Shown piece after piece: positions 1-10,973 of a DNA stretch of 64,000 nt; positions within the stretch are counted from its first letter, which is position 1, and every line of letters starts with the position of its first letter. The translations under genes were made by a program, and so were the position numbers. Location: NCBI GenBank assembly GCA_035528115.1, contig DATKZF010000001.1, positions 92,508-156,507 of the forward strand. Direction: 5' to 3'. The stretch is from Candidatus Bipolaricaulota bacterium. Its GTDB lineage: Bacteria; Patescibacteriota; Patescibacteriia; UBA11705; DATKZF01. The notes under the pieces are model-generated. The model did no database searches. It had not been told where the DNA came from and worked only from the letters and a program-made list of their open reading frames with translations.

Positions 1-3000
1 AAATTGTCGGATCCTCTGTCAGCGCCAAAACGGACAAAAACGGAGTGGCCACGATCGATACGGGCAAAATTTTAAGCTTAACGGAGATCAAGGAGCAAAG
101 ATTGGAAAATAATTATTTGATGAAAATATCGGCCGATAACAAAGCTGTCATTATCCCATTGAGCGCCGATTATTATTATTTGGGAGAAAATGAGAGCGAT
201 CAATATTGGAATTATTTTTTCAGCGACAGATCGATGTACAAACCGAATGACACCCTTAATTTTTGGGGATTCGCGCAGAGTCGCAATGGCCAGGAAAATA
301 TAGATAAAGTGAAAATTTCTCTTACGGAATTCGATTACAAAAATTATTATTACGAATCAATCGACGTCAATCAGGTTGTCGCCGAGGTTTCCGGAGGCGG
401 CACTTTTTCAGGCAAGATGGATCTGAAAAGCTTGACTCCCGGATATTACAGTTTGGATTTTTATATCAATGATAATTTGGTTTCGCGAAGATCCATCTCG
501 ATCGAAGATTACATTAAGCCGGCATACAGCCTGAACATAGTGCCGGAGAAAAAAGCCATTATCGCCGGCGAGCCCATCAATATTGATGTTAACGCTTCTT
601 TTTTCGAAGGAACCCCGGTGCCTAATCTGGCGCTTAGCTATAATGCCGATAAAGAAGATAAAACAATAAAGACGGACGCGCGAGGCGACGCCAAGATAAC
701 CATCTCGACAAACGCCTCCAAGCTTAATGACGATTGCATCAAAACCGCGAGTTGCCATCTTTACGAAAGCTCATACCGGAATGTTAATATTTCTCAGCTC
801 GATTCCGAAGAAGCGGATATTTACGACACGGTGACAATCAGACTTTATAACGCCGCCATTCAAGCCGGCGCCAGATTCGAGGCCATCGGCAACAATAAGG
901 CCAAAATTGAAACTAGAATAAATAACATTGATTTTGATGAATTGAACGCGGGTGAAGCTTCCATTTACAACGCGCCCGTTTTCGAGGATGAGTCCAAGAC
1001 GGCGGTCGCCAACGCGACATTTCAGGCGGCGGTCACGGAAATCACTTATGTCAAAAACGAAACCGGGGAATATTACGATTTTATCAATAAAGTTGTCAAA
1101 AAAACTTATGATTACGACAGGCAAGAAAATGTGGTTTTGGTTTATGATGGAAAAACCGACGCCAATGGCAAACATATTTTCGAATTGAATATTGACCCCG
1201 AAAAAAGTTATCAGGTGCAAATTTTAACCAAGGATGCGGCCGGAAGACAAACAATCGCCGACGCGTACATGTCGGGCAATTATCAGCCGTCTCTTTTTTC
1301 TCAATACGAACTGAAATTTAAAAATAAAGATGATGATTATTCGGCGACCTTTGATTTGGGAGAAAAAGTTGATGTCTCTTTCAATAAAGATGGTGTGCAA
1401 CTGCCCGCCGGAGGCAAGGATTATCTTTACCTTAATCTTCAAAAAGGCTTGATGAATTACTTTGTTAGCGATGCCGCGGAATACGCTTTCGAGTTTGAAG
1501 AAAAACATATTCCCAACGTGAACGTGAAAGGAGTATTTTTCGATGGGCAGGCGTATCATGAGGCCAATTCGGATTGGTATTTGGGATTTTCTCAAAGTAT
1601 TATCGCCAGATACAACAGTCTGTCCAAAGAATTGAATATCGCGGTCAAAGCTGATAAAGATAAATACGAACCTGGCGAAAAAGTAACATTGGATGTAAAA
1701 GTGTCCGATCGAAACAATAAAGCCAAAAAAACCGACGTAAATTTCAGTCTGGTGGATGAAGCGTTTTTCAGTCTGAGCGACCAGACCGTCATGCCCCTGG
1801 ACACTTTGTACGAGCCGGTTTCCACCGGTTTGATAAGCACCTATAAATCTCACGATTATGTGAAGTTTATGGGAGGAGGAGGCGCTGAAGGCGGCGGTTG
1901 CTTTGCCGCCGGCACCAAGATAACCATGGCTGATGGCTCCAAGAAAAATATTGAAGACGTCAAAGAAGGCGATGAAATTTTAACTTTCGAAAACGAACGA
2001 GCAATAAAAACCGTTTCCGCGAAAGTGGTCGAAACATTCGAGCACACGGTTTCGGGATATTTGTTGATTAATGATTCCTTGCGGGTAACGCCCGAGCACA
2101 GAATGTTCATCAATAGCGGTTGGCAGATGATCGGGGAAGCGAAAGTCAATGATATGTTAATGGACGAATCGGGACAATTGGTCAGAATTGAGAAAATCGC
2201 TTATGAAAGGGAAATCGTCAAAGTTTACAATTTGCATATTGAGAAGTATCACACTTTTTTCGCCAATGGCATTTACGTCCATAATGAAAAAGGCGGCGCT
2301 CGAGTCAATTTTTTGGACGTGGCTTTGTTTCAAACCGTTTCCACGAATGCCAAAGGGGAGGGGCAGGTAAGCTTCACTTTGCCGGACAATTTGACCTCCT
2401 GGCGCGTGACCTGCCAGGCGATCAATCAGGATCTCTTCGCCGGTTCATCAGTCATTAATATCCCGGTCAGTTTGCCGGTTTTCGTGCAACCGAATGTTTC
2501 TTCGGAATATTTATCTAAGGACAAACCGATTATTAAAATGACCGCTTACGGAACGGAGTTGACTTCCAAAGATCCGGTGTCGTTTAATCTGAAATCCGAA
2601 ACGCTCGGTATCAATGAAAAGGGAATTGCCGGAGCGGCGTTTGTTCCGAATTATTATCAAATAGAATCAATGCCGCAAGGACAGCACGAGTTGGAATTGG
2701 GAGTAGAGAGCTCGAAAGGCAATGACGGCATGATAAAGAAAATAACGGTCTTGGCGTCGCGGCTTCGAGAATCCGCGCAAAGATTCTATACTTTGTCAGA
2801 TGATTTGAAGGTCGAAGGCGGCGCTGCGGGCCTGACCAAGCTGACTTTCAGCGATTTGAATCAAGGCAGCTTTTACTGGACATTGCAAAAGATGTCTTGG
2901 ACGGTCGGCGACAGAGTGGATCAAAAGCTTTCCAGAATTATCGGCGATGAATTGCTCCTGAAATATTTCAATGAAAATAAGTACGAGGCCGACGATCTTG

Positions 3001-4181
3001 ACGCGAGTTTGTATCAAGACGCGAAAACCGGCATCAGTTTGTTCCCGTACAGCGGCGGCGATTACGAGTTAACCGCGAAGATAGCGGCGGTGGCGGCCGA
3101 TCATTTCGATAAAAATAATTTGGCCAATTATTTTTACGCAAAATTGAATAGCGATAAATCCACGCGAGAAGAAGTGGCGCTGGCTTTGTTCGGTCTGGCC
3201 GGTTTGGACGAGCCCGTGTTATTGCCCGTTCAAGCTTTCGCGAAAATAGAAGATTTGCCGGTCATTGAAAAGTTGTATATAGGTTTGGCGCTGGAAAAGC
3301 TGGGCGACGGAGAATCGGCCAGGTCCATCTTAAAAGAGCTGTTGGACGATTATGGCGATGAAAAGGCGCCATACGCTTGGTTGAAAGCGGGTTCGGATCA
3401 AGACGATATTTTACGGGCGACATCTTTGGCGGCGGTGCTGGCCGGAGGATTGAATCATGAATCTCACGAAGCTCTTTGGAGATATGTCAGAGACAACAGA
3501 ACCGATGAAGTTTTGGTTAATCTTGAGCAGTTGATGTACACGACGTTTTCGATCGACCAACTCAGACCGGGAGAATCTTCTTTTTCCTATGAATTGAACG
3601 GAGAAGTGAAAAATATTTCGCTGGAAAAGGGATCTTGGCATCAAATCTATCTTTCTCCGGAACAATTGAGCCAAATCAAATTCAGTAACATTTCCGGCAA
3701 AATAGGCGTGGTGAGCGGTTATGAAATCGCGGCCACGGCCGTTAATTCCGAAGAAAACGGCCTTAAAATTTCAAGAGAGTATTATGTCAACGGTAAAAAG
3801 ACCAATACGTTCAAGGATACTGACTTGGTGCAGGTTAGAATTAATTATTCTTTCGACGCGGCCGCCGTGCAAGGCGAATATGAGGTGGTCGATTCTTTGC
3901 CCAGCGGTTTGAGAATCGTTACCAACCCCTTCAGCAGATATCGGGAATTTATTTCCTCGGCTTGCGGTTTGCGATATCCATACGAAATAAGCGGTCAAAG
4001 AGTCAAATTCGGCGTCTGGAAGACGACTTATTCCAATTATTGCAACAACGGGGAATTCACGTATTTCGCCAGAGTGGTCAATCCCGGAGAATATGAAGCT
4101 GAGCCGGTTTTATTGCAATCGATTAAATCAAGCGAATTGAAAAGATATTCGGAAAGCTCGAGGATAACCATTGAAAAATAA
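1..4181 (+). CDS. Large secreted/surface protein, 5'-truncated by the window edge; carries an embedded Hint/BIL domain
   Basis: The frame of the 45..4181 ORF stays open back to nt 3, so the true start lies upstream of the window. The 1378+ aa product is Asn/Asp/Tyr-rich with Ig-like repetitive segments and no obvious catalytic motif apart from the embedded Hint domain. Confidence 0.7.
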   Translation, partial: IVGSSVSAKTDKNGVATIDTGKILSLTEIKEQRLENNYLMKISADNKAVIIPLSADYYYLGENESDQYWNYFFSDRSMYKPNDTLNFWGFAQSRNGQENIDKVKISLTEFDYKNYYYESIDVNQVVAEVSGGGTFSGKMDLKSLTPGYYSLDFYINDNLVSRRSISIEDYIKPAYSLNIVPEKKAIIAGEPINIDVNASFFEGTPVPNLALSYNADKEDKTIKTDARGDAKITISTNASKLNDDCIKTASCHLYESSYRNVNISQLDSEEADIYDTVTIRLYNAAIQAGARFEAIGNNKAKIETRINNIDFDELNAGEASIYNAPVFEDESKTAVANATFQAAVTEITYVKNETGEYYDFINKVVKKTYDYDRQENVVLVYDGKTDANGKHIFELNIDPEKSYQVQILTKDAAGRQTIADAYMSGNYQPSLFSQYELKFKNKDDDYSATFDLGEKVDVSFNKDGVQLPAGGKDYLYLNLQKGLMNYFVSDAAEYAFEFEEKHIPNVNVKGVFFDGQAYHEANSDWYLGFSQSIIARYNSLSKELNIAVKADKDKYEPGEKVTLDVKVSDRNNKAKKTDVNFSLVDEAFFSLSDQTVMPLDTLYEPVSTGLISTYKSHDYVKFMGGGGAEGGGCFAAGTKITMADGSKKNIEDVKEGDEILTFENERAIKTVSAKVVETFEHTVSGYLLINDSLRVTPEHRMFINSGWQMIGEAKVNDMLMDESGQLVRIEKIAYEREIVKVYNLHIEKYHTFFANGIYVHNEKGGARVNFLDVALFQTVSTNAKGEGQVSFTLPDNLTSWRVTCQAINQDLFAGSSVINIPVSLPVFVQPNVSSEYLSKDKPIIKMTAYGTELTSKDPVSFNLKSETLGINEKGIAGAAFVPNYYQIESMPQGQHELELGVESSKGNDGMIKKITVLASRLRESAQRFYTLSDDLKVEGGAAGLTKLTFSDLNQGSFYWTLQKMSWTVGDRVDQKLSRIIGDELLLKYFNENKYEADDLDASLYQDAKTGISLFPYSGGDYELTAKIAAVAADHFDKNNLANYFYAKLNSDKSTREEVALALFGLAGLDEPVLLPVQAFAKIEDLPVIEKLYIGLALEKLGDGESARSILKELLDDYGDEKAPYAWLKAGSDQDDILRATSLAAVLAGGLNHESHEALWRYVRDNRTDEVLVNLEQLMYTTFSIDQLRPGESSFSYELNGEVKNISLEKGSWHQIYLSPEQLSQIKFSNISGKIGVVSGYEIAATAVNSEENGLKISREYYVNGKKTNTFKDTDLVQVRINYSFDAAAVQGEYEVVDSLPSGLRIVTNPFSRYREFISSACGLRYPYEISGQRVKFGVWKTTYSNYCNNGEFTYFARVVNPGEYEAEPVLLQSIKSSELKRYSESSRITIEK
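1899..2285 (+). other. Hint / bacterial intein-like (BIL, type A) domain inside the surface protein
   Basis: 129 aa that begin with Cys (CFAAGTKI), carry a TPEH block B, and end in HTFFANGIYVHN followed by Glu. A Gly-rich linker (GGGGAEGGG) sits immediately N-terminal. Confidence 0.6.
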
Positions 4182-5109
4182 CATGACAATCAGAAAAATA
4201 TTTTTAATTTTTCTCATACCGGCGGCGGTTGCTGCCGGTATGTTTTTTGTTTTTTTAAGCGGGGCTGAAATAAAAAACCATGTTACTGCCGATGAGACTG
4301 AACAACCCGTTCAAGAAATTTTGAGCGGTCAGATAATCAAAGCGGAGTTAAACCCGGATTATTTGTATCCGGCCTTGTTGTTCGCTGAAAGCGTGGAAAT
4401 AAAACAATACGGACTTATCAAAGGGGCAATTGTCACGCATCATGATTTGGCAATAAGGATGACCGCTGAAAATTTGTATAGAATTTCAAGAAATCAAAAA
4501 GTCGACAGATTGATTTTAATTTCGCCGAATCATTCTGACATCGGTTTGTCCCAGGCCATTGGCAGTCTGGCCGAGTATGACACTATATTCGGAAGATTGA
4601 GTCAGGATGAATCGATATTGGAGGATTTAAGGTCGGCCGGCTTGCTGTCTTATGATTATGAAAACATTAAAAATGAACATGGCATAAATTACATCGTGCC
4701 TTTGATAAAATATTATTTTCCGGAAGCCAAAGTCGCCGCGTTAAGTTTGTCTTCGAAACATGATTTAAAGCAGGATCTGAAATTAAGCAATGCGTTGTCG
4801 AAATATTTGGACGAAGCAAACACCGTCTTGATAGCGTCAATAGATTTTTCCCATTACCTTTCCACAAGCAGCGCCAATCAAAATGATTCGAAAACATTGG
4901 AAGCGATCAAGGCGCTTGATTTTGATTTTTTATCCACGTTCAATAATGATTTTTTTGATTCTCCGGCCGCGCTTTCGACCTTGATGAGCAGTCTCGATTT
5001 GGCTAAGGCGACGAATGACATAATTTTAGGTCATGCCAACTCCTCGGATTTTGTAGGCCATGAATTAAACAGCTCCACCGGTTACTTTTCGATTTTATTC
5101 TCAAAATAA
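4171..5109 (+). CDS. Membrane-anchored hypothetical protein
   Basis: ORF with an N-terminal TM helix. It overlaps the upstream gene by 11 nt; an alternative ATG lies at 4183. The His/Asp motifs (VTHHDLA, SPNHSD, IDFSHY) weakly resemble the Memo/LigB superfamily. Confidence 0.5.
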   Translation: MKNNMTIRKIFLIFLIPAAVAAGMFFVFLSGAEIKNHVTADETEQPVQEILSGQIIKAELNPDYLYPALLFAESVEIKQYGLIKGAIVTHHDLAIRMTAENLYRISRNQKVDRLILISPNHSDIGLSQAIGSLAEYDTIFGRLSQDESILEDLRSAGLLSYDYENIKNEHGINYIVPLIKYYFPEAKVAALSLSSKHDLKQDLKLSNALSKYLDEANTVLIASIDFSHYLSTSSANQNDSKTLEAIKALDFDFLSTFNNDFFDSPAALSTLMSSLDLAKATNDIILGHANSSDFVGHELNSSTGYFSILFSK

Positions 5110-5123
5110 AAAAAATAGTCCTA

Positions 5124-5159
5124 AAAAAGCTTGAAAAATAAGCTTTTTTTTGGTACAAT
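5124..5159 (+). promoter_or_regulatory. Terminator hairpin overlapping a sigma70-like promoter
   Basis: Hairpin AAAGCTT-gaaaaat-AAGCTTT followed by a T-run. TTGAAA (5131-5136) and TACAAT (5154-5159) are separated by a 17-bp spacer. The -10 ends about 8 nt before the ATG at 5168, so the downstream GT2 gene may be leaderless. Confidence 0.45.
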
Positions 5160-5167
5160 CAATTTAT

Positions 5168-6229
5168 ATGGAAAAAATCGCCATAATCATGATAAATTAT
5201 AAGGACTACGCCAAGCGGTTTTTAAAAGAAAGCGCGGAGTCTTTATCAAAAATAAATTATCCCAACGAAAATTGGCGGTTATACGTGGTGGACAATGAAA
5301 GCTCTCCTGAAACGGTGGCGAGCATAAAGGAATTGGCGCCGGAGGCCGTCATCGTGCCTTCCGGAGGCAATGGTTGGGGACATGGCAATAATGTCGGCGT
5401 TAAAAAGGCAATGGAGGACGGGTTTGACGATTATTTCTTTTTCGTCAATATGGACACGATTTTCGATCCGAAGTTTATCAATGAGGCCTTGAGCGTTTAT
5501 AAAAGCGATGATAAAATCGGCATTGTCCAATCAAAATTGCTTTTGCATCCGCCCCAAAACGGGCAATACTATCTGAATTCGGGCGGCAACGCCTTGACGT
5601 TTCTGGGCTTCGGCTATTGCGCCGGCGACGGCAAGGTTGACGATATTTCCATGGAGACGACGGATATTATTTCCGCGGCCGGAGCCGGACTTTTAATTTC
5701 AAAAGAAAAATTCATGGAGATCGGTCAATGCGATGAGACTTATTTCATGTACCATGATGATATTGAATTGAGCCAAAAAATAAAATTGGCCGGATACAGG
5801 TTGGTTTTGGCGCCAAAGTCAGTAATTTATCATAAACATGAATTCGGCCGATCAATTCGTCAAGTGTATTTCATGGAGAGAAACAGGTTAAGATTTTTAT
5901 TGGAATTTTTGCGCTGGCCGACTTTGATTATCATTTTCCCCGCCTTTGTTTTGATGGAAATCGGCATGTTGCCTTTTGAAATAATGAATAAATGGTTTGG
6001 CGCCAAATTGAAAGCTTATGGATATTTTTTCAGCTTGAAAAATTTGAAATTGATTTTTCAAAAAAGGAGAGCAATTCAGCGTTTGAGAAAAATCAAAGAC
6101 AGGGAATTTACGAAAAAATTCGTGGGCAAAATAGAATATCAGCAGATTGAAAATCCATTGCTCAAATACGTTGCCAATCCGCTGTTTAATTTGTATTGGA
6201 AAATAACGAAATATCTAATTTTTTGGTAA
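5168..6229 (+). CDS. Glycosyltransferase family 2
   Basis: N-terminus IAIIMINYKDY...VVDNESS matches the GT2 Rossmann start. DxD-like motifs are present and there is a C-terminal TM region. The ORF-track start at 5150 is a TTG; the ATG at 5168 is preferred. Confidence 0.8.
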   Translation: MEKIAIIMINYKDYAKRFLKESAESLSKINYPNENWRLYVVDNESSPETVASIKELAPEAVIVPSGGNGWGHGNNVGVKKAMEDGFDDYFFFVNMDTIFDPKFINEALSVYKSDDKIGIVQSKLLLHPPQNGQYYLNSGGNALTFLGFGYCAGDGKVDDISMETTDIISAAGAGLLISKEKFMEIGQCDETYFMYHDDIELSQKIKLAGYRLVLAPKSVIYHKHEFGRSIRQVYFMERNRLRFLLEFLRWPTLIIIFPAFVLMEIGMLPFEIMNKWFGAKLKAYGYFFSLKNLKLIFQKRRAIQRLRKIKDREFTKKFVGKIEYQQIENPLLKYVANPLFNLYWKITKYLIFW

Positions 6230-6232
6230 TAT

Positions 6233-7393
6233 ATGAGCGCTAAAGACAAGTCAAATTTGAAAATCGCGCAAGTAGTGTGCGTGGTGCCTCCGTACGGAGG
6301 CGGCATCGGAGTGGTGGCGCATTGTTATGCGTCCGAATTGTCGCGTTTGGGTCATCAAGTCGATGTTTTCGTGCCCAGATTCGATGTCGATCCGGATTAT
6401 AAACGCAATTACAATCTGCGATTATTAAGGCCGCTTATTCGTTCCGGCAACGCCTCCTTGGTCCCCAACTTGTATTGGCGATTGAAAAACAAATACGACA
6501 TTGTGCATTTGCATTATCCTTTTATCGGCGGCACAGAGGTGATTAACAGTTTGCGCAAGAAAAGATTTATAAAGAAGTTGGTGGTGAGCTATCACATGGA
6601 TTTCGTGGGTGAAGGAGTAAAAGGCAAATTATTGAAATATTACGCCAGTTGGCAGACGCCCAGAATCATTAAAACCGCGGACAAGGTGGTTGTTTCCTCC
6701 ATCGATTACATGATGGATAGCTCTATCAGGAAATTTTATTTGAAAGATAAGGCCAAGTTTTTGGAATTGCCGTTTGGCGTGAAAAGAACTTATCGAGTCA
6801 GACCCAAAGATCCGTATTTGCTGAAAAGGTTCAAAATAAAACCTGAGGACAAAATACTTTTGTTTGTCGGCGGTCTGGACGCGGCTCATTATTTCAAAGG
6901 CGTGAATTATTTGATTGACGCCATGAAGTATTTGGACGCAAATTACAAATTGATCGTCGTCGGGGAAGGGGATTTGAAAAAGACATATATCGAGCAAGCC
7001 AAATCGATCGGCCAAGAAAACAGAATATTTTTCACCGGCTATATTGAGAGCGACCAATTGCCGGATTATTACGCGCTGTGCGATTTATTCGTTTTGCCAT
7101 CCGTTGATAAATCGGAAGCTTTCGGCATTGTTTTAGTGGAAGCGCTCGCTTCCGGCAAGCCCGTGATAGCCTCAAATTTGAAAGGTGTCAGAACAGTGGT
7201 CGATTCCGGCAGAAACGGCCTTTTGTTTGAGCCAAAAAACTCAAAGGATATTTCGGATAAGGCTAAAATTATTTTGCAGAATACCAGATTATACGCGCAA
7301 TTTTCAGAAAACGCGACCAAGGTGGCGAATATGAAGTATCGTTGGCCTCAAATCGTGAAAAAACTGGAAGAAGCATATTTGGAGATATTATGA
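6233..7393 (+). CDS. Glycosyltransferase family 4 (GT-B)
   Basis: C-terminal EAFGIVLVEALASGKPVIAS motif (the EX7E region). Confidence 0.85.
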   Translation: MSAKDKSNLKIAQVVCVVPPYGGGIGVVAHCYASELSRLGHQVDVFVPRFDVDPDYKRNYNLRLLRPLIRSGNASLVPNLYWRLKNKYDIVHLHYPFIGGTEVINSLRKKRFIKKLVVSYHMDFVGEGVKGKLLKYYASWQTPRIIKTADKVVVSSIDYMMDSSIRKFYLKDKAKFLELPFGVKRTYRVRPKDPYLLKRFKIKPEDKILLFVGGLDAAHYFKGVNYLIDAMKYLDANYKLIVVGEGDLKKTYIEQAKSIGQENRIFFTGYIESDQLPDYYALCDLFVLPSVDKSEAFGIVLVEALASGKPVIASNLKGVRTVVDSGRNGLLFEPKNSKDISDKAKIILQNTRLYAQFSENATKVANMKYRWPQIVKKLEEAYLEIL

Positions 7394-8556
7394 AGATCGC
7401 CATTATCAGTAATTTATTCGCTCCTTATCAGCGTGGCGGCGCGGAAAAAATCGCCAAAGCGCAAGCGGAATTTCTGGTGAAAAATCATGAGGTTTTTGTG
7501 ATTTCTTCAAAGCCTGACGGCTCTGAAATTTCAGTGGAGCAAAAAAACGAATTAAAAATTTATCGTCTTTCTTCGGCCAACATATATTATTATCTCGACG
7601 ATTTTAGGCATGGCGTTTTGGCCAGACTGATTTGGCATTATTTAGATCAAATCAATTTGGTCAATTTTTTCAGGGTCAGGAAAATCCTAAAAAAAGAAAA
7701 ACCGGATTTGGTTGTCTCGCACAATTTAATGGGCTTGGGGTTTTTAATTCCGCTGGTTTTGAAAAAATACCAATGGACTCATGTTTTGCACGATGTTCAG
7801 CTGGCCGCGCCGAGTGGTTTGATTATCAAGGGCGAGGAAAATACTTTTTCAGTGGCGGGCTGGCCGGTAAAAATATATTCTTGGTTGAATAAGAGGCTTT
7901 TCAATTCGCCGACCAAAGTCGTGTCGCCATCAAATTGGCTGCTTGATTTTTATTTGGTCAAAGGATTTTTTAAAAAATCCAAAACGCAGGTTTTGCCCAA
8001 TCCGATTTTATTTGAAATTAAAAATTCTACGAAAGAAAAATCGTCATCTTTGAAATTGCTTTTTGTCGGACAAATCGAGGAGCACAAAGGCATATTATTT
8101 TTAATAAACGCTTTGAAGGAATCAAAACGAAATTTTATTTTAAGCATAGCCGGTTCCGGTTCGAAAGAATCCGAGGTTAAGTCTCTGCTCGGCGGAGATG
8201 AAAGATTTAAGTATTTGGGAAAGTTGGCTCCGATGGAAATCAAAGACTTGATAGCGACGTCTGATTTTTTGGTCGTTCCGTCTCTTTGTTATGAAAATTC
8301 TCCGACCGTGATTTATGAAGCGTTCAGTCAAGGAATGCCGGTTATCGCCTCGAAGATCGGCGGCATTGGAGAATTGGTGAAAGAAGGGGAGACGGGTTTT
8401 GTGTTTGAAGCGGGTGATCGAGACCAGCTTATTCTGGCGGTTCAAAAAGCCATGGCAACGCAAAATTACGGCCAACTCTCCCAAAATTGTCTGAGCACGG
8501 TAGGTGATTTTAATTCGAAACAATATTTGGAGAAATTATTGGACGTGTTTCAATAA
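7390..8556 (+). CDS. Glycosyltransferase family 4 (GT-B)
   Basis: ENSPTVIYEAFSQGMPVIASKIGG motif. The ATG at 7390 overlaps the upstream stop in an ATGA arrangement, and the product starts MKIAIISNLF. Confidence 0.85.
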   Translation: MKIAIISNLFAPYQRGGAEKIAKAQAEFLVKNHEVFVISSKPDGSEISVEQKNELKIYRLSSANIYYYLDDFRHGVLARLIWHYLDQINLVNFFRVRKILKKEKPDLVVSHNLMGLGFLIPLVLKKYQWTHVLHDVQLAAPSGLIIKGEENTFSVAGWPVKIYSWLNKRLFNSPTKVVSPSNWLLDFYLVKGFFKKSKTQVLPNPILFEIKNSTKEKSSSLKLLFVGQIEEHKGILFLINALKESKRNFILSIAGSGSKESEVKSLLGGDERFKYLGKLAPMEIKDLIATSDFLVVPSLCYENSPTVIYEAFSQGMPVIASKIGGIGELVKEGETGFVFEAGDRDQLILAVQKAMATQNYGQLSQNCLSTVGDFNSKQYLEKLLDVFQ

Positions 8557-8639
8557 TAGTAATAGACAGCCGGCTGGGAGCCAGCATCGCATAAAAACAT
8601 ACCACCTAACCCGGCAGAGAGCTTGACTCTCTGCTCTTA

Positions 8640-8672
8640 AGTTGTCATATTTCAATAATAATGATATAATCA
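8640..8672 (+). promoter_or_regulatory. Putative promoter of tRNA-Trp
   Basis: TTGTCA followed by TGATATAAT (an extended -10), about 20 nt upstream of the tRNA. Confidence 0.4.
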
Positions 8673-8693
8673 TAACGATTTCGATTTGATTAC

Positions 8694-8767
8694 GGGGGCG
8701 TCGTATAGTGGTAGTACAACGGTCTCCAAAACCGTTTGCGTGGGTTCGATTCCTACCGCCCCTGCCA
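8694..8767 (+). tRNA. trnW: tRNA-Trp (anticodon CCA)
   Basis: Cloverleaf: acceptor GGGGGCG/CGCCCCT, anticodon loop CTCCAAA, T-arm GTGGGTTCGATTCCTAC, with an encoded 3' CCA. Confidence 0.85.
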
Positions 8768-8802
8768 CGTCGCTCGCCACAGTCGTTCGTGAACGACGTG
8801 GC
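8764..8802 (+). terminator. Hairpin overlapping the tRNA 3' end (processing or termination structure)
   Basis: GCCACGTCG...CGACGTGGC, a 9-10 bp stem with an inner GTCGTT/GAACGAC sub-palindrome. No T-run follows. Confidence 0.35.
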
Positions 8803-8915
8803 TCGCGAGCAATATTTCAGCCAAATGCTGATTTTTTTTGTTTATCAACAAATTGGTTCGTTTGTTGCAAGGAGCGTGTTATAATAGCAATGATTTTAAT
8901 TAATTTTCAAATATT

Positions 8916-9887
8916 ATGAAAAAATCCAATCTAAAATGGATCTTGCTCGCGGTCGCGGTTATCATCGCCGCCGCCTTGATTTATTTTTTGGCGATCAAGG
9001 GAGTTTATAAAAAAGAAATTTACGAAAATTCGCGCTATCAGTACAGCTTGAATTATCCCGCGGATTGGACTTTGGGAGCGGAGGAGACAAATAACGCGGG
9101 CAGGGAAATATTTTCACCGGATAAAAAGGTTTATTGCTATGTTTACGGTTTTGAAAATGCGTTGGTAAACGACAACGGCGAGCCGCAGACGATCGATGAA
9201 TTTTCTGATTGGCTGGTCACGGCTTCCAAAGAGTTATCGACCGAGGAAGAGCCGATAAATCTGTTGACCAGAGAAGCGACAAAGCTCGACGGTTGGCCGG
9301 CAATGAAAATGTCGTTTGACGAAGGCGCGATTGTCAGAGAGGCTGTTTATACTCTGGGCAAAAGCACCGGATTGGGATTCTTTTGCGTCTATCCGACCCG
9401 AGATGATCAAACGCAATACGGAAAAGATTTCGAAAAGATGTATAAAAGTATTGCTATCAAATCAGATTTGGACGGCGCGGGAACAAACGCCATCAGCTGC
9501 GCCAATCTGCTCGGCGGCGCGACCACCCCGTTAAAGGGCAAGGAAGTTTTTTACGATACCGCCTACACCGAGGTTACCATGACCGGCCGCGAGGACTGGG
9601 ATCAAGATCGTTTGCCCTTGCAGGTGGTACAGCTGGAGCCGGCCGGATATGAGTGTTATCCGATGCCGTTTGAATTCTCGGATTCTTCGCCGGACGACGT
9701 GAACGCCCAGCCCGAAGTCACCAAAGTGGAATGGACGTGTGAATTGCCGTATGAGGAGTGGGGATACGTGGCGTTCGATGATGAAAATGAAAAAGCCGCG
9801 CAGGAGAAAGAAGGACTTGTTTGCAAGCAAGACAACTGCATGGATGAAAATTCCGCGCTGACGTCAATTTGGTTTTGTTCCAAATAA
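8916..9887 (+). CDS. Hypothetical secreted/membrane-anchored protein
   Basis: Signal-anchor N-terminus, Cys-rich C-terminal region, no recognisable motif. Confidence 0.6.
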   Translation: MKKSNLKWILLAVAVIIAAALIYFLAIKGVYKKEIYENSRYQYSLNYPADWTLGAEETNNAGREIFSPDKKVYCYVYGFENALVNDNGEPQTIDEFSDWLVTASKELSTEEEPINLLTREATKLDGWPAMKMSFDEGAIVREAVYTLGKSTGLGFFCVYPTRDDQTQYGKDFEKMYKSIAIKSDLDGAGTNAISCANLLGGATTPLKGKEVFYDTAYTEVTMTGREDWDQDRLPLQVVQLEPAGYECYPMPFEFSDSSPDDVNAQPEVTKVEWTCELPYEEWGYVAFDDENEKAAQEKEGLVCKQDNCMDENSALTSIWFCSK

Positions 9888-9890
9888 AAT

Positions 9891-9950
9891 GTTACGAATT
9901 ACAATATTCTTAAGCATAAAGCTACAAATGGATGTAATTTGTAAGAATAT
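9891..9950 (+). repeat. MITE-like repeat, short form (R1)
   Basis: GTTACGAATTACAA, then attcttaagcataaagctacaa, then gatgtaatttgtaagaatat. Lies between two convergent genes. Confidence 0.6.

Positions 9951-10973
<1,023 letters not shown>

Follow-up and report, generated by a model that had tools for sequence, protein, structure and literature searches.

A type-A bacterial intein-like domain at the bait-region position of a bacterial alpha-2-macroglobulin-family protein

In the window analysed here (the whole stretch of 64,000 nucleotides from contig DATKZF010000001.1, assembly GCA_035528115.1), we identified a Hint domain of the type-A bacterial intein-like (BIL) class inside a protein of the alpha-2-macroglobulin (A2M) family. 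Earlier descriptions present BILs as elements scattered among variable secreted proteins and of uncertain purpose. The one described here occupies a single loaded site, the bait or activation site of the A2M-complement fold, in more than 100 species-level genomes. Its placement, its conservation and an invariant lysine two residues past the C-terminal junction (Lys+2) are unfamiliar, while the fold and the chemistry are familiar. We consider it probable (roughly 0.7) that the domain actively excises itself from the bait site, and we leave the product of this reaction open. Residues of the Hint domain are numbered from 1 to 129, and flanking residues are counted as −1, +1, +2 and so on from the two junctions.

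A type-A BIL within an A2M-family host

The host gene and the elements needed for the following description are located in the window as follows.

3–4181, plus strand: host gene, comprising the 3' 1392 codons and the stop codon of a 1878-codon gene for a predicted membrane-anchored A2M-family protein (open reading frame (ORF), Pfam, Foldseek)
1353–1775, plus strand: A2M_BRD bait-region domain, directly N-terminal of the Hint domain (PF07703, E=1.9e-7, residues 451–591 of the window protein)
1872–1898, plus strand: N-terminal flanking linker GGGGAEGGG with Gly at −1; GAEGGG is conserved, and the predicted local distance difference test score (pLDDT) in the AlphaFold2 (AF2) model is below 50
1899–2285, plus strand: mini-Hint or type-A BIL-like domain of 129 aa without an endonuclease insert (Pfam, NCBIfam, AF2, Foldseek, PDB profile search)
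1899–1901, plus strand: Cys1 of block A, predicted nucleophile of the N-S acyl shift, invariant in homologs
2088–2099, plus strand: block B, Thr64-Pro-Glu-His67 (TPEH), which aligns with the corresponding block of the BILs 2lwy and 6tmm
2223–2231, plus strand: block F, Val-Tyr-Asn111, with the same VYN in the Clostridium thermocellum BIL alignment
2280–2285, plus strand: block G, His128-Asn129, Asn being the predicted cyclising residue for C-terminal cleavage (invariant; NCBIfam intein_Cterm match)
2286–2303, plus strand: C-terminal flank EKGGAR with Glu+1 (2286–2288), which is no nucleophile, and Lys+2
2322–2543, plus strand: Pfam A2M domain (second part of MG6 / MG7, MG standing for macroglobulin domain), directly C-terminal of the Hint domain (PF00207, E=4e-8, residues 774–847 of the window protein)
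2907–2924, plus strand: GDRVDQ, equivalent of the A2M thioester motif GC[VT]EQ with Arg in place of Cys (C-terminal-half alignment)
3759–4121, plus strand: bacterial A2M domain MG10 (bMG10) at the host C-terminus (PF17973, E=4.8e-6)

Translation of 1899–2285 yields 129 residues without a stop codon (CFAAGTKI...TPEHRMF...HTFFANGIYVHN), starting and ending as CFAAGTKITMADG...VTPEHRMF...KYHTFFANGIYVHN. The reading frame is that of the ORF which is open from the 5' edge of the window and ends with the stop codon at 4179–4181. PT-HINT (PF07591) is the best Pfam family for this segment (E=6e-16, profile positions 4–136 of 137), Vint, Hint_2 and Intein_splicing likewise score above threshold, and the NCBIfam models intein_Nterm and intein_Cterm both exceed their cut-offs. 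When PDB sequences were searched with a profile built from 23 family members, the C. thermocellum BIL (2lwy) ranked first (1.2e-17) and the Tetrahymena BIL2 second (1.4e-16), with inteins reaching 5.9e-9 at best, 8–9 orders of magnitude behind the BILs. The AF2 model, which covers the Hint domain plus short flanks, has a mean pLDDT of 86.7 and a core above 93. BIL2 is its top Foldseek match (E=4e-12, TM-score 0.77–0.82), 2lwy reaches a TM-score of 0.86, and mini-inteins and Hedgehog rank below the BILs, Hedgehog being matched by fold only. The Hint assignment is far beyond chance resemblance, and the domain is a type-A BIL by its fold, its Cys1, TxxH and His-Asn, its lack of a +1 nucleophile and its closeness to BILs.

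These results bear out the original prediction, which had placed a Hint domain on exactly these nucleotides and had located the N-terminal Cys, TPEH, the terminal His-Asn, Glu+1 and the preceding Gly-rich linker where we find them to the base. The Pfam profiles and the structure prediction confirm the Hint fold, the three motifs fall on blocks A, B and G of Hint domains when aligned, and the preference for a BIL-type domain over an intein agrees with the best matches in both sequence and structure. Minus-strand ORFs over the region (for example 1856–2149, 97 aa) lie inside the strongly supported plus-strand gene and are unsupported.

The published definition of type-A BILs fits the domain (PMC4031507, PMC7765530), and it is the C-terminal His-Asn, as in inteins, that sets type A apart from type B (PMC4031507). 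With the C. thermocellum BIL (PDB 2lwy; Amitai 2003, Dassa 2004 and Aranko 2013, as cited in PMC4031507) it shares the Hint fold, Cys1, block-B TxxH, VYN in block F, C-terminal His-Asn, the absence of a +1 nucleophile and of an endonuclease and, probably, an extracytoplasmic host protein. It differs from BILs of that type in the invariant Lys+2 and Gly-1 and in the fixed length of 129 aa. Published BILs are described from hypervariable regions of non-conserved proteins (PMC7765530), whereas the present domain keeps to a single position within a conserved A2M family across a large share of the candidate phyla radiation (CPR), and its junctions recur in 80 loci and in 64 representatives.

The top structural match, BIL2 of the Tetrahymena thermophila BUBL protein (PDB 6tmm/6y75, TM-score about 0.8), shares an N-extein ending in Gly-Gly. 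It differs in being eukaryotic, in having ubiquitin-like domains as flanks and in showing 27–28% identity to the Hint domain described here. Mini-inteins (Ssp/Npu DnaB, the Mtu RecA splicing domain, gp41-1) have the same fold and block A/B/F/G layout, but they need Cys, Ser or Thr at +1 and match at E values of 6e-9 or worse. In class-1 inteins, the block-F position held here by Asn111 is an Asp.

The host was analysed in full length as protein P0001 (1878 aa), which is 100% identical to the window ORF. Its Pfam domains follow each other in the order MG2, A2M_BRD, Hint (residues 633–761 of the window protein), A2M and bMG10. A model of window residues 430–870 shows confident beta-sandwich domains on either side of the confident Hint domain, and the joins at GGGGAEGGG and EKGGARV are two low-confidence stretches. 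Foldseek matches this model to ECAM, human A2M, A2ML1, CD109 and C3/C4/C5. By profile alignment, the segment before the Hint domain (A2M_BRD) pairs with C5 beta chain 530–611, and the one that follows the domain matches human A2M 722–813 and C5 alpha chain 107–168. The host is thus an A2M-family protein with an MG array, a bait-region domain, an A2M domain and a C-terminal MG10. Because the flanks align to these C5 and A2M segments, the Hint domain is at the position of the A2M bait region, which is also that of the complement beta/alpha site and the anaphylatoxin domain.

P0001 contains a single hydrophobic segment (residues 82–106) preceded by basic residues, so type-II anchoring is predicted, with about 1770 residues probably extracytoplasmic. 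The "giant surface protein" of more than 1378 aa that was originally proposed is accordingly right in size and probably right in its extracellular location. Its identity as an A2M-family member with the Hint domain at the bait site had gone unnoticed, as had the conserved CPR architecture and the invariance of Lys+2, which equals that of the catalytic residues.

In an alignment that took in classical A2Ms and thioester-bearing relatives with a Hint domain, WTVGDRVDQ of the window protein stands at the position of YPYGC[VT]EQ in classical members, and the window host therefore lacks the thioester. The same alignment of the C-terminal half ruled out NLEQ near the C-terminus as a thioester remnant, GDRVDQ being the equivalent. 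Five Hint-bearing relatives (L032, L037, L065, L075 and L088), which fall in an A2M subfamily with the thioester, keep YPYGC[VT]EQ about 223 aa past the Hint domain, a motif missing from most of the family. Their hosts show 17–20% identity to the rest, and their Hint domains about 55%.

The MG domains, A2M_BRD, A2M and bMG10 are shared with E. coli ECAM/YfhM (PDB 4ziq/5a42), human A2M and the thioester-less YfaS/MagD type. Compared with these proteins, the present host is anchored by a predicted transmembrane segment at its N-terminus, lacks the thioester Cys and carries, in place of the bait, a short Gly-rich linker with a predicted self-processing domain. Its conserved neighbours, a Memo-like gene and often an extracytoplasmic function (ECF) sigma factor, are also different. 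In complement C3/C4/C5, the beta/alpha site and the anaphylatoxin domain have the same topological position, and a cut there gives a two-chain protein. There, however, a furin-type protease makes the cut and a convertase removes the inserted domain; in the present host, the inserted domain would remove itself.

The host architecture also bears on the NCBI product name "polymorphic toxin-type HINT domain-containing protein", according to which the domain would be the pretoxin HINT of a polymorphic toxin and would release a C-terminal toxin. PT-HINT is indeed the best Pfam family, and the A-type MafB class 1 BIL likewise lies where the constant N-terminal portion of a secreted protein meets its C-terminal portion (PMC4287609). 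The present host, however, has no variable toxin tip, immunity gene or cassettes. The approximately 630 residues past the Hint domain complete the conserved A2M fold with A2M/MG7, the equivalent of the thioester site and bMG10, and the downstream gene is a conserved Memo-like gene. A pretoxin is contradicted by this domain content and by the neighbours, and is the least credible of the explanations we considered. The entries filed under this name, as "Ig-like domain-containing protein" or as "hypothetical protein" are hereby corrected. In an incomplete full-text collection, we found no literature linking Hint, BIL or intein with macroglobulin, bait region or Patescibacteria; the Hint-A2M architecture is already implicit in domain databases.

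Insertion site, conservation and distribution

The native flanks of the BIL are YVKFMGGGGAEGGG on the N-terminal side and EKGGARVNFLD on the C-terminal side, and the N-terminal linker is predicted to be flexible from its low pLDDT. In a joint alignment of family members with and without the domain, the Hint domain appears as a clean block insertion. Proteins with the domain keep GAE.GG and those without it have GAE[KMCR]GG. Deleting the domain in silico gives GAEGGG/[DE]KGGxRxxFxD (the slash marks the junction), and the linker of the Hint-less relatives reads GAE[KMCR]GG/[ED]GGGxRxDFxD, the same in length and register. Because the two linkers agree in this way, the Hint domain sits between the GG and the acidic residue of an older linker motif, and the non-nucleophilic residue at +1 is the original linker residue at that place. 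Lys+2 is restricted to Hint-bearing proteins, and Gly is found there in Hint-less relatives. The motif GAE[KMCR]GG[ED]GGGxR is kept even in Hint-less members (P0030–P0058 and others) from CPR, Bacillota, Dehalococcoidia and other groups. This conservation suggests that the linker seems to have a function beyond flexibility.

The conservation of individual residues was followed in three sets of sequences. Searching with the whole protein yielded 23 A2M-family members with a Hint domain, at 32–47% identity, plus many Hint-less ones, and this set is unselected for Hint residues since it was collected by whole-protein similarity. A second set consists of 64 further representatives found by hidden Markov model (HMM), and a third comprises 96 sequences for which Cys1 was a selection criterion. 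Cys1, Thr64, His67, His128 and Asn129 are present in 23 of 23 members of the first set. In the second, Gly-1, Cys1, the Thr and His of block B, the Asn of block F, His128, Asn129 and Lys+2 each occur in 64 of 64, and in the third, Thr64, His67 and Asn111 do so in 96 of 96. Of the 23 whole-protein homologs, 20 have Lys at +2 and the other three have it at +3. The +1 residue is always D, E, Q or N in these 23 (D13/E6/Q2/N2); among the 64 representatives (D47/E6/Q5/S3/T1/A1), 58 have one of these four residues and four have Ser or Thr.

Among 4560 pairs, conservation of the Hint domain exceeds that of the host in 99.6% (mean identities 47% and 30%, respectively), and host identity among Hint-bearing members falls to 14–20%. 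Hint and host identities are correlated (r=0.53–0.68), and the GC content of the Hint domain, overall and at third codon positions (GC3), equals that of the rest of the host gene. A recent horizontal arrival was rejected, as there is no GC or GC3 difference and no outlier pair except near-identical genomes. The residue invariance, the excess of Hint over host conservation and the GC match point to a long residence with strong purifying selection on both junction chemistries, and by these sequence comparisons the Hint domain appears to be an old, vertically kept resident of the A2M family and not a recent mobile insertion.

A true mobile intein with standard splicing would be in line with the NCBIfam intein matches, with the few Ser and Thr residues at +1 and with the interleaving of presence and absence among relatives described below. 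The +1 residue, however, is Glu in the window protein and D, E, Q or N in about 95% of relatives, as expected from the earlier statement that canonical splicing is not possible. A homing-endonuclease insert is absent at the fixed length of 129 aa, BILs outscore inteins by the margin given above, and both the GC match and the correlated identities run against mobility. In addition, inteins occupy conserved functional sites, whereas this insertion site is a flexible linker. We regard a splicing intein as very improbable.

Proteins with and without the Hint domain are interleaved at similar host identity, as judged by nearest-neighbour identities. For the Hint-less P0025, all five closest relatives bear the domain, and the Hint-less P0016–19 are as near to the Hint-bearing P0010 and P0011 as these two are to each other. 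In a neighbour-joining (NJ) tree of 1598 host columns, the two kinds of protein are scattered as well; its deep branches are short and unreliable, and it does not separate gains from losses. Monophyly of the Hint-bearing proteins is thus unsupported. The A2M family appears to work with and without a Hint domain around the same linker.

When one genome per GTDB species was scanned, the Hint-A2M architecture turned up in 111 species genomes, and 80 of the 111 confirmed loci were kept. All 80 kept loci are from metagenome-assembled genomes (MAGs), whose informative names are nearly all of CPR/Patescibacteria (Magasanik-, Uhr-, Falkow-, Peregrini- and Peribacteria; Gracili-, Collier-, Levy- and Gottesmanbacteria; Moran-, Portnoy- and Buchananbacteria; Parcubacteria). 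The original suggestion of a CPR-like organism is probably right, judging by the names of the relatives, and is at odds with the label of P0001 itself, which is Candidatus Bipolaricaulota at NCBI. The Hint domain is exactly 129 aa long in 78 of the 80 loci, in host ORFs of 1700–1900 aa with about 1000–1100 residues before and about 620–640 after it, and the A2M motif PDNxTSWR follows it in 74. Many of the carrier MAGs are titled "uncultured Gammaproteobacteria/Pseudomonadales" or "Nanoarchaeia" (L009, L010, L016, L019–L021 and others). These odd labels, that of P0001 included, look like binning or submission artefacts, and all lineage-specific names are CPR.

Searching 1.84 billion representative proteins exhaustively by HMM gave 1004 clusters at E<=1e-30. 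Within the best 150 of these, the single-domain matches that cover the flanks too are of the A2M type. Shorter single-domain matches were considered as other hosts and discarded, since nine of nine that were checked are A2M fragments. The sole non-A2M host found for this BIL subfamily is an SLH-SLH-BIL-beta-propeller protein (Beta_propel PF09826) at approximately 7200–10118 of locus L079, in the Gracilibacteria MAG JBAZQU01. Its junctions (AEKGG/C...HN/DKGE) are those of the A2M hosts, and the same MAG has an A2M-type locus (L043). Related BILs also occur in tandem, 2–12 per protein with short Gly-rich spacers, in P0100 (1285 aa), P0104 (662 aa; prepilin-like N-terminus) and P0108 (410 aa). 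Lys or Arg comes right after His-Asn in these proteins, for example in VHN/GKGGGG/CF, and a basic residue just past the C-terminal junction may be a trait of this BIL clade.

These data also allow us to weigh a non-catalytic insert, that is, a Hint domain which serves as a folded spacer or as bait for outside proteases and never processes itself. The domain does occupy the bait position, and the classical variable bait is cut down to about 5–15 residues in Hint-bearing proteins. All residues for both cleavages are nevertheless invariant in two independent samples, even at the lowest host identities, and a compact, confidently modelled beta-domain is a poor protease bait. We therefore find a non-catalytic role improbable.

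Candidate self-processing at the bait site

Judging from the conserved residues and from characterised BILs, the domain is most likely catalytically competent. Type-A BILs form a thioester at the N-terminal Cys and undergo C-terminal cleavage by Asn cyclisation (PMC4031507, PMC7664689, PMC7765530). Their products arise mainly by cleavage, with some ligation when a freed amino group attacks the thioester (PMC4031507, PMC7664689). In Tetrahymena BIL2, the thioester is resolved by a Lys epsilon-amine to an isopeptide, and the N-extein is joined to lysines (PMC8616854). We apply this chemistry to the Hint domain of the A2M host because every residue that it needs is invariant.

After export and folding, Cys1, aided by Thr64 and His67, would replace its peptide bond to Gly(-1) by a thioester, and Asn129, aided by His128, would cyclise and cut the Asn129-Glu(+1) bond. 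The branched intermediate of inteins would be closed to this thioester because the +1 residue is not Cys, Ser or Thr. Two routes of resolution can be envisaged. Attack by water would leave a two-chain protein, nicked where furin cuts C3/C4/C5, and the two chains would presumably be held together by MG6, whose halves flank the site, like the beta and alpha chains of C3/C4/C5. Alternatively, attack by an amine, either the alpha-amine of Glu+1 or the epsilon-amine of Lys+2, would re-join the two halves. Either way the 14-kDa domain would be removed, and the bait site would keep a nick or a linker of the Hint-less type, with the same length and composition. By homology, MG6 would be split at this site and Lys+2 may lie close to Cys1. 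The all-Gly flexible flanks and the invariant Lys+2 would fit an amine attack, Lys+2 being the putative counterpart of the lysine that forms the isopeptide in BIL2, and the experimental record of BILs favours cleavage.

Several points weigh against this self-excision. In classical A2Ms, a cut in the bait region triggers the trap, and constitutive self-cleavage would seem to disarm a trap of the classical type. It would thus have to be harmless, like the beta/alpha processing of C3, or regulated, or the purpose of the design. The five Hint-bearing relatives that keep the thioester make the view of a harmless nick less comfortable. We infer both the activity and its product (nick, peptide ligation or isopeptide) for this family, and the domain may either benefit its host or be a tolerated passenger.

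A transfer reaction of the Hedgehog kind is a further way in which the thioester might be used. Hedgehog attaches cholesterol through its Hint thioester, and Tetrahymena BIL2 links a ubiquitin-like domain to other proteins; here, an external nucleophile (an amine of the cell wall, a lipid or a lysine on a different protein) would take the thioester, and the N-terminal fragment of about 1100 residues would become attached via its C-terminal Gly. The Gly-Gly-Gly end of the N-extein resembles the RGG of the ubiquitin-like domain before BIL2 in alignments, the passing of the N-extein to lysines is documented for this best structural match (PMC8616854), and in L079 the same BIL with the same junctions lies between an SLH cell-wall anchor and a beta-propeller. 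His128-Asn129 is invariant, though, and a pure N-terminal transfer would not need it. In the Hog domain of Hedgehog, a sterol (adduct) recognition region follows the Hint and His-Asn is lacking; here His-Asn is present, no such region follows, and the A2M fold resumes within 6–8 residues. The N-terminal fragment is, moreover, membrane-anchored already by prediction. Such a transfer is rather unlikely in our estimation.

This family offers a natural system for two questions, namely what BILs are for and whether proteins of the A2M type can be matured or triggered without an external protease. With 129 aa, no endonuclease, few cysteines and tiny Gly-rich exteins, the Hint domain could also be of use in protein engineering if it ligates.

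Gene neighbourhood and other features of the window

One further feature adjoins the host gene.

4183–5109, plus strand: Memo-like gene (TTG start at 4171 according to the ORF lister) that follows immediately on the A2M stop codon; its product has a hydrophobic segment at the N-terminus (PF01875, E=3e-22)

Where a Hint-bearing locus has sufficient flanking sequence, the gene next to the A2M gene on its downstream side is Memo-like in 51 of 79 cases, and the gene next to it on the upstream side encodes a sigma factor in 30 of 70. On the source contig, upstream of the window, an ECF sigma-70 gene (L001 9451–10020) overlaps the start of the A2M gene, and such a gene is also found at the A2M gene start in L002, L005 and L007. 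The Hint-less Uhrbacteria locus L007 has both the Memo and the sigma neighbours, and the Bacillota relatives have neither. The approximately 85-aa cytoplasmic tail of the A2M protein followed by one transmembrane helix is the topology of an anti-sigma factor. Pfam detects no anti-sigma domain in the cytoplasmic N-terminus, and the link to the sigma factor therefore comes from gene order.

This neighbourhood bears on a more elaborate reading, in which the BIL would be a domesticated, protease-independent trigger of a complement- or A2M-like surface protein. Its excision might be conditional and would switch the protein to a processed conformation; the thioester would pass to Lys+2, by the chemistry of Tetrahymena BIL2, and leave an isopeptide-linked two-chain product. 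Given the ECF sigma gene that overlaps upstream in many genomes, the cytoplasmic tail and the single transmembrane helix, the excision could also act as a transmembrane signal. We consider this full sequence of events unlikely, and self-excision with an open product is the reading that we prefer.

Farther downstream, the Memo-like gene is followed by three glycosyltransferase genes (GT2, GT4 and GT4; 5150–8556, plus strand). No rRNA was found in the window, and a tRNA-Trp (CCA) lies past the glycosyltransferase genes at 8694–8767 on the plus strand. Between 11231 and 16114, also on the plus strand, genes for an N6/N4 DNA methylase, a ResIII-type helicase and a DUF5677 protein stand in a row, an arrangement suggestive of a type III restriction-modification system or a related module of defence.

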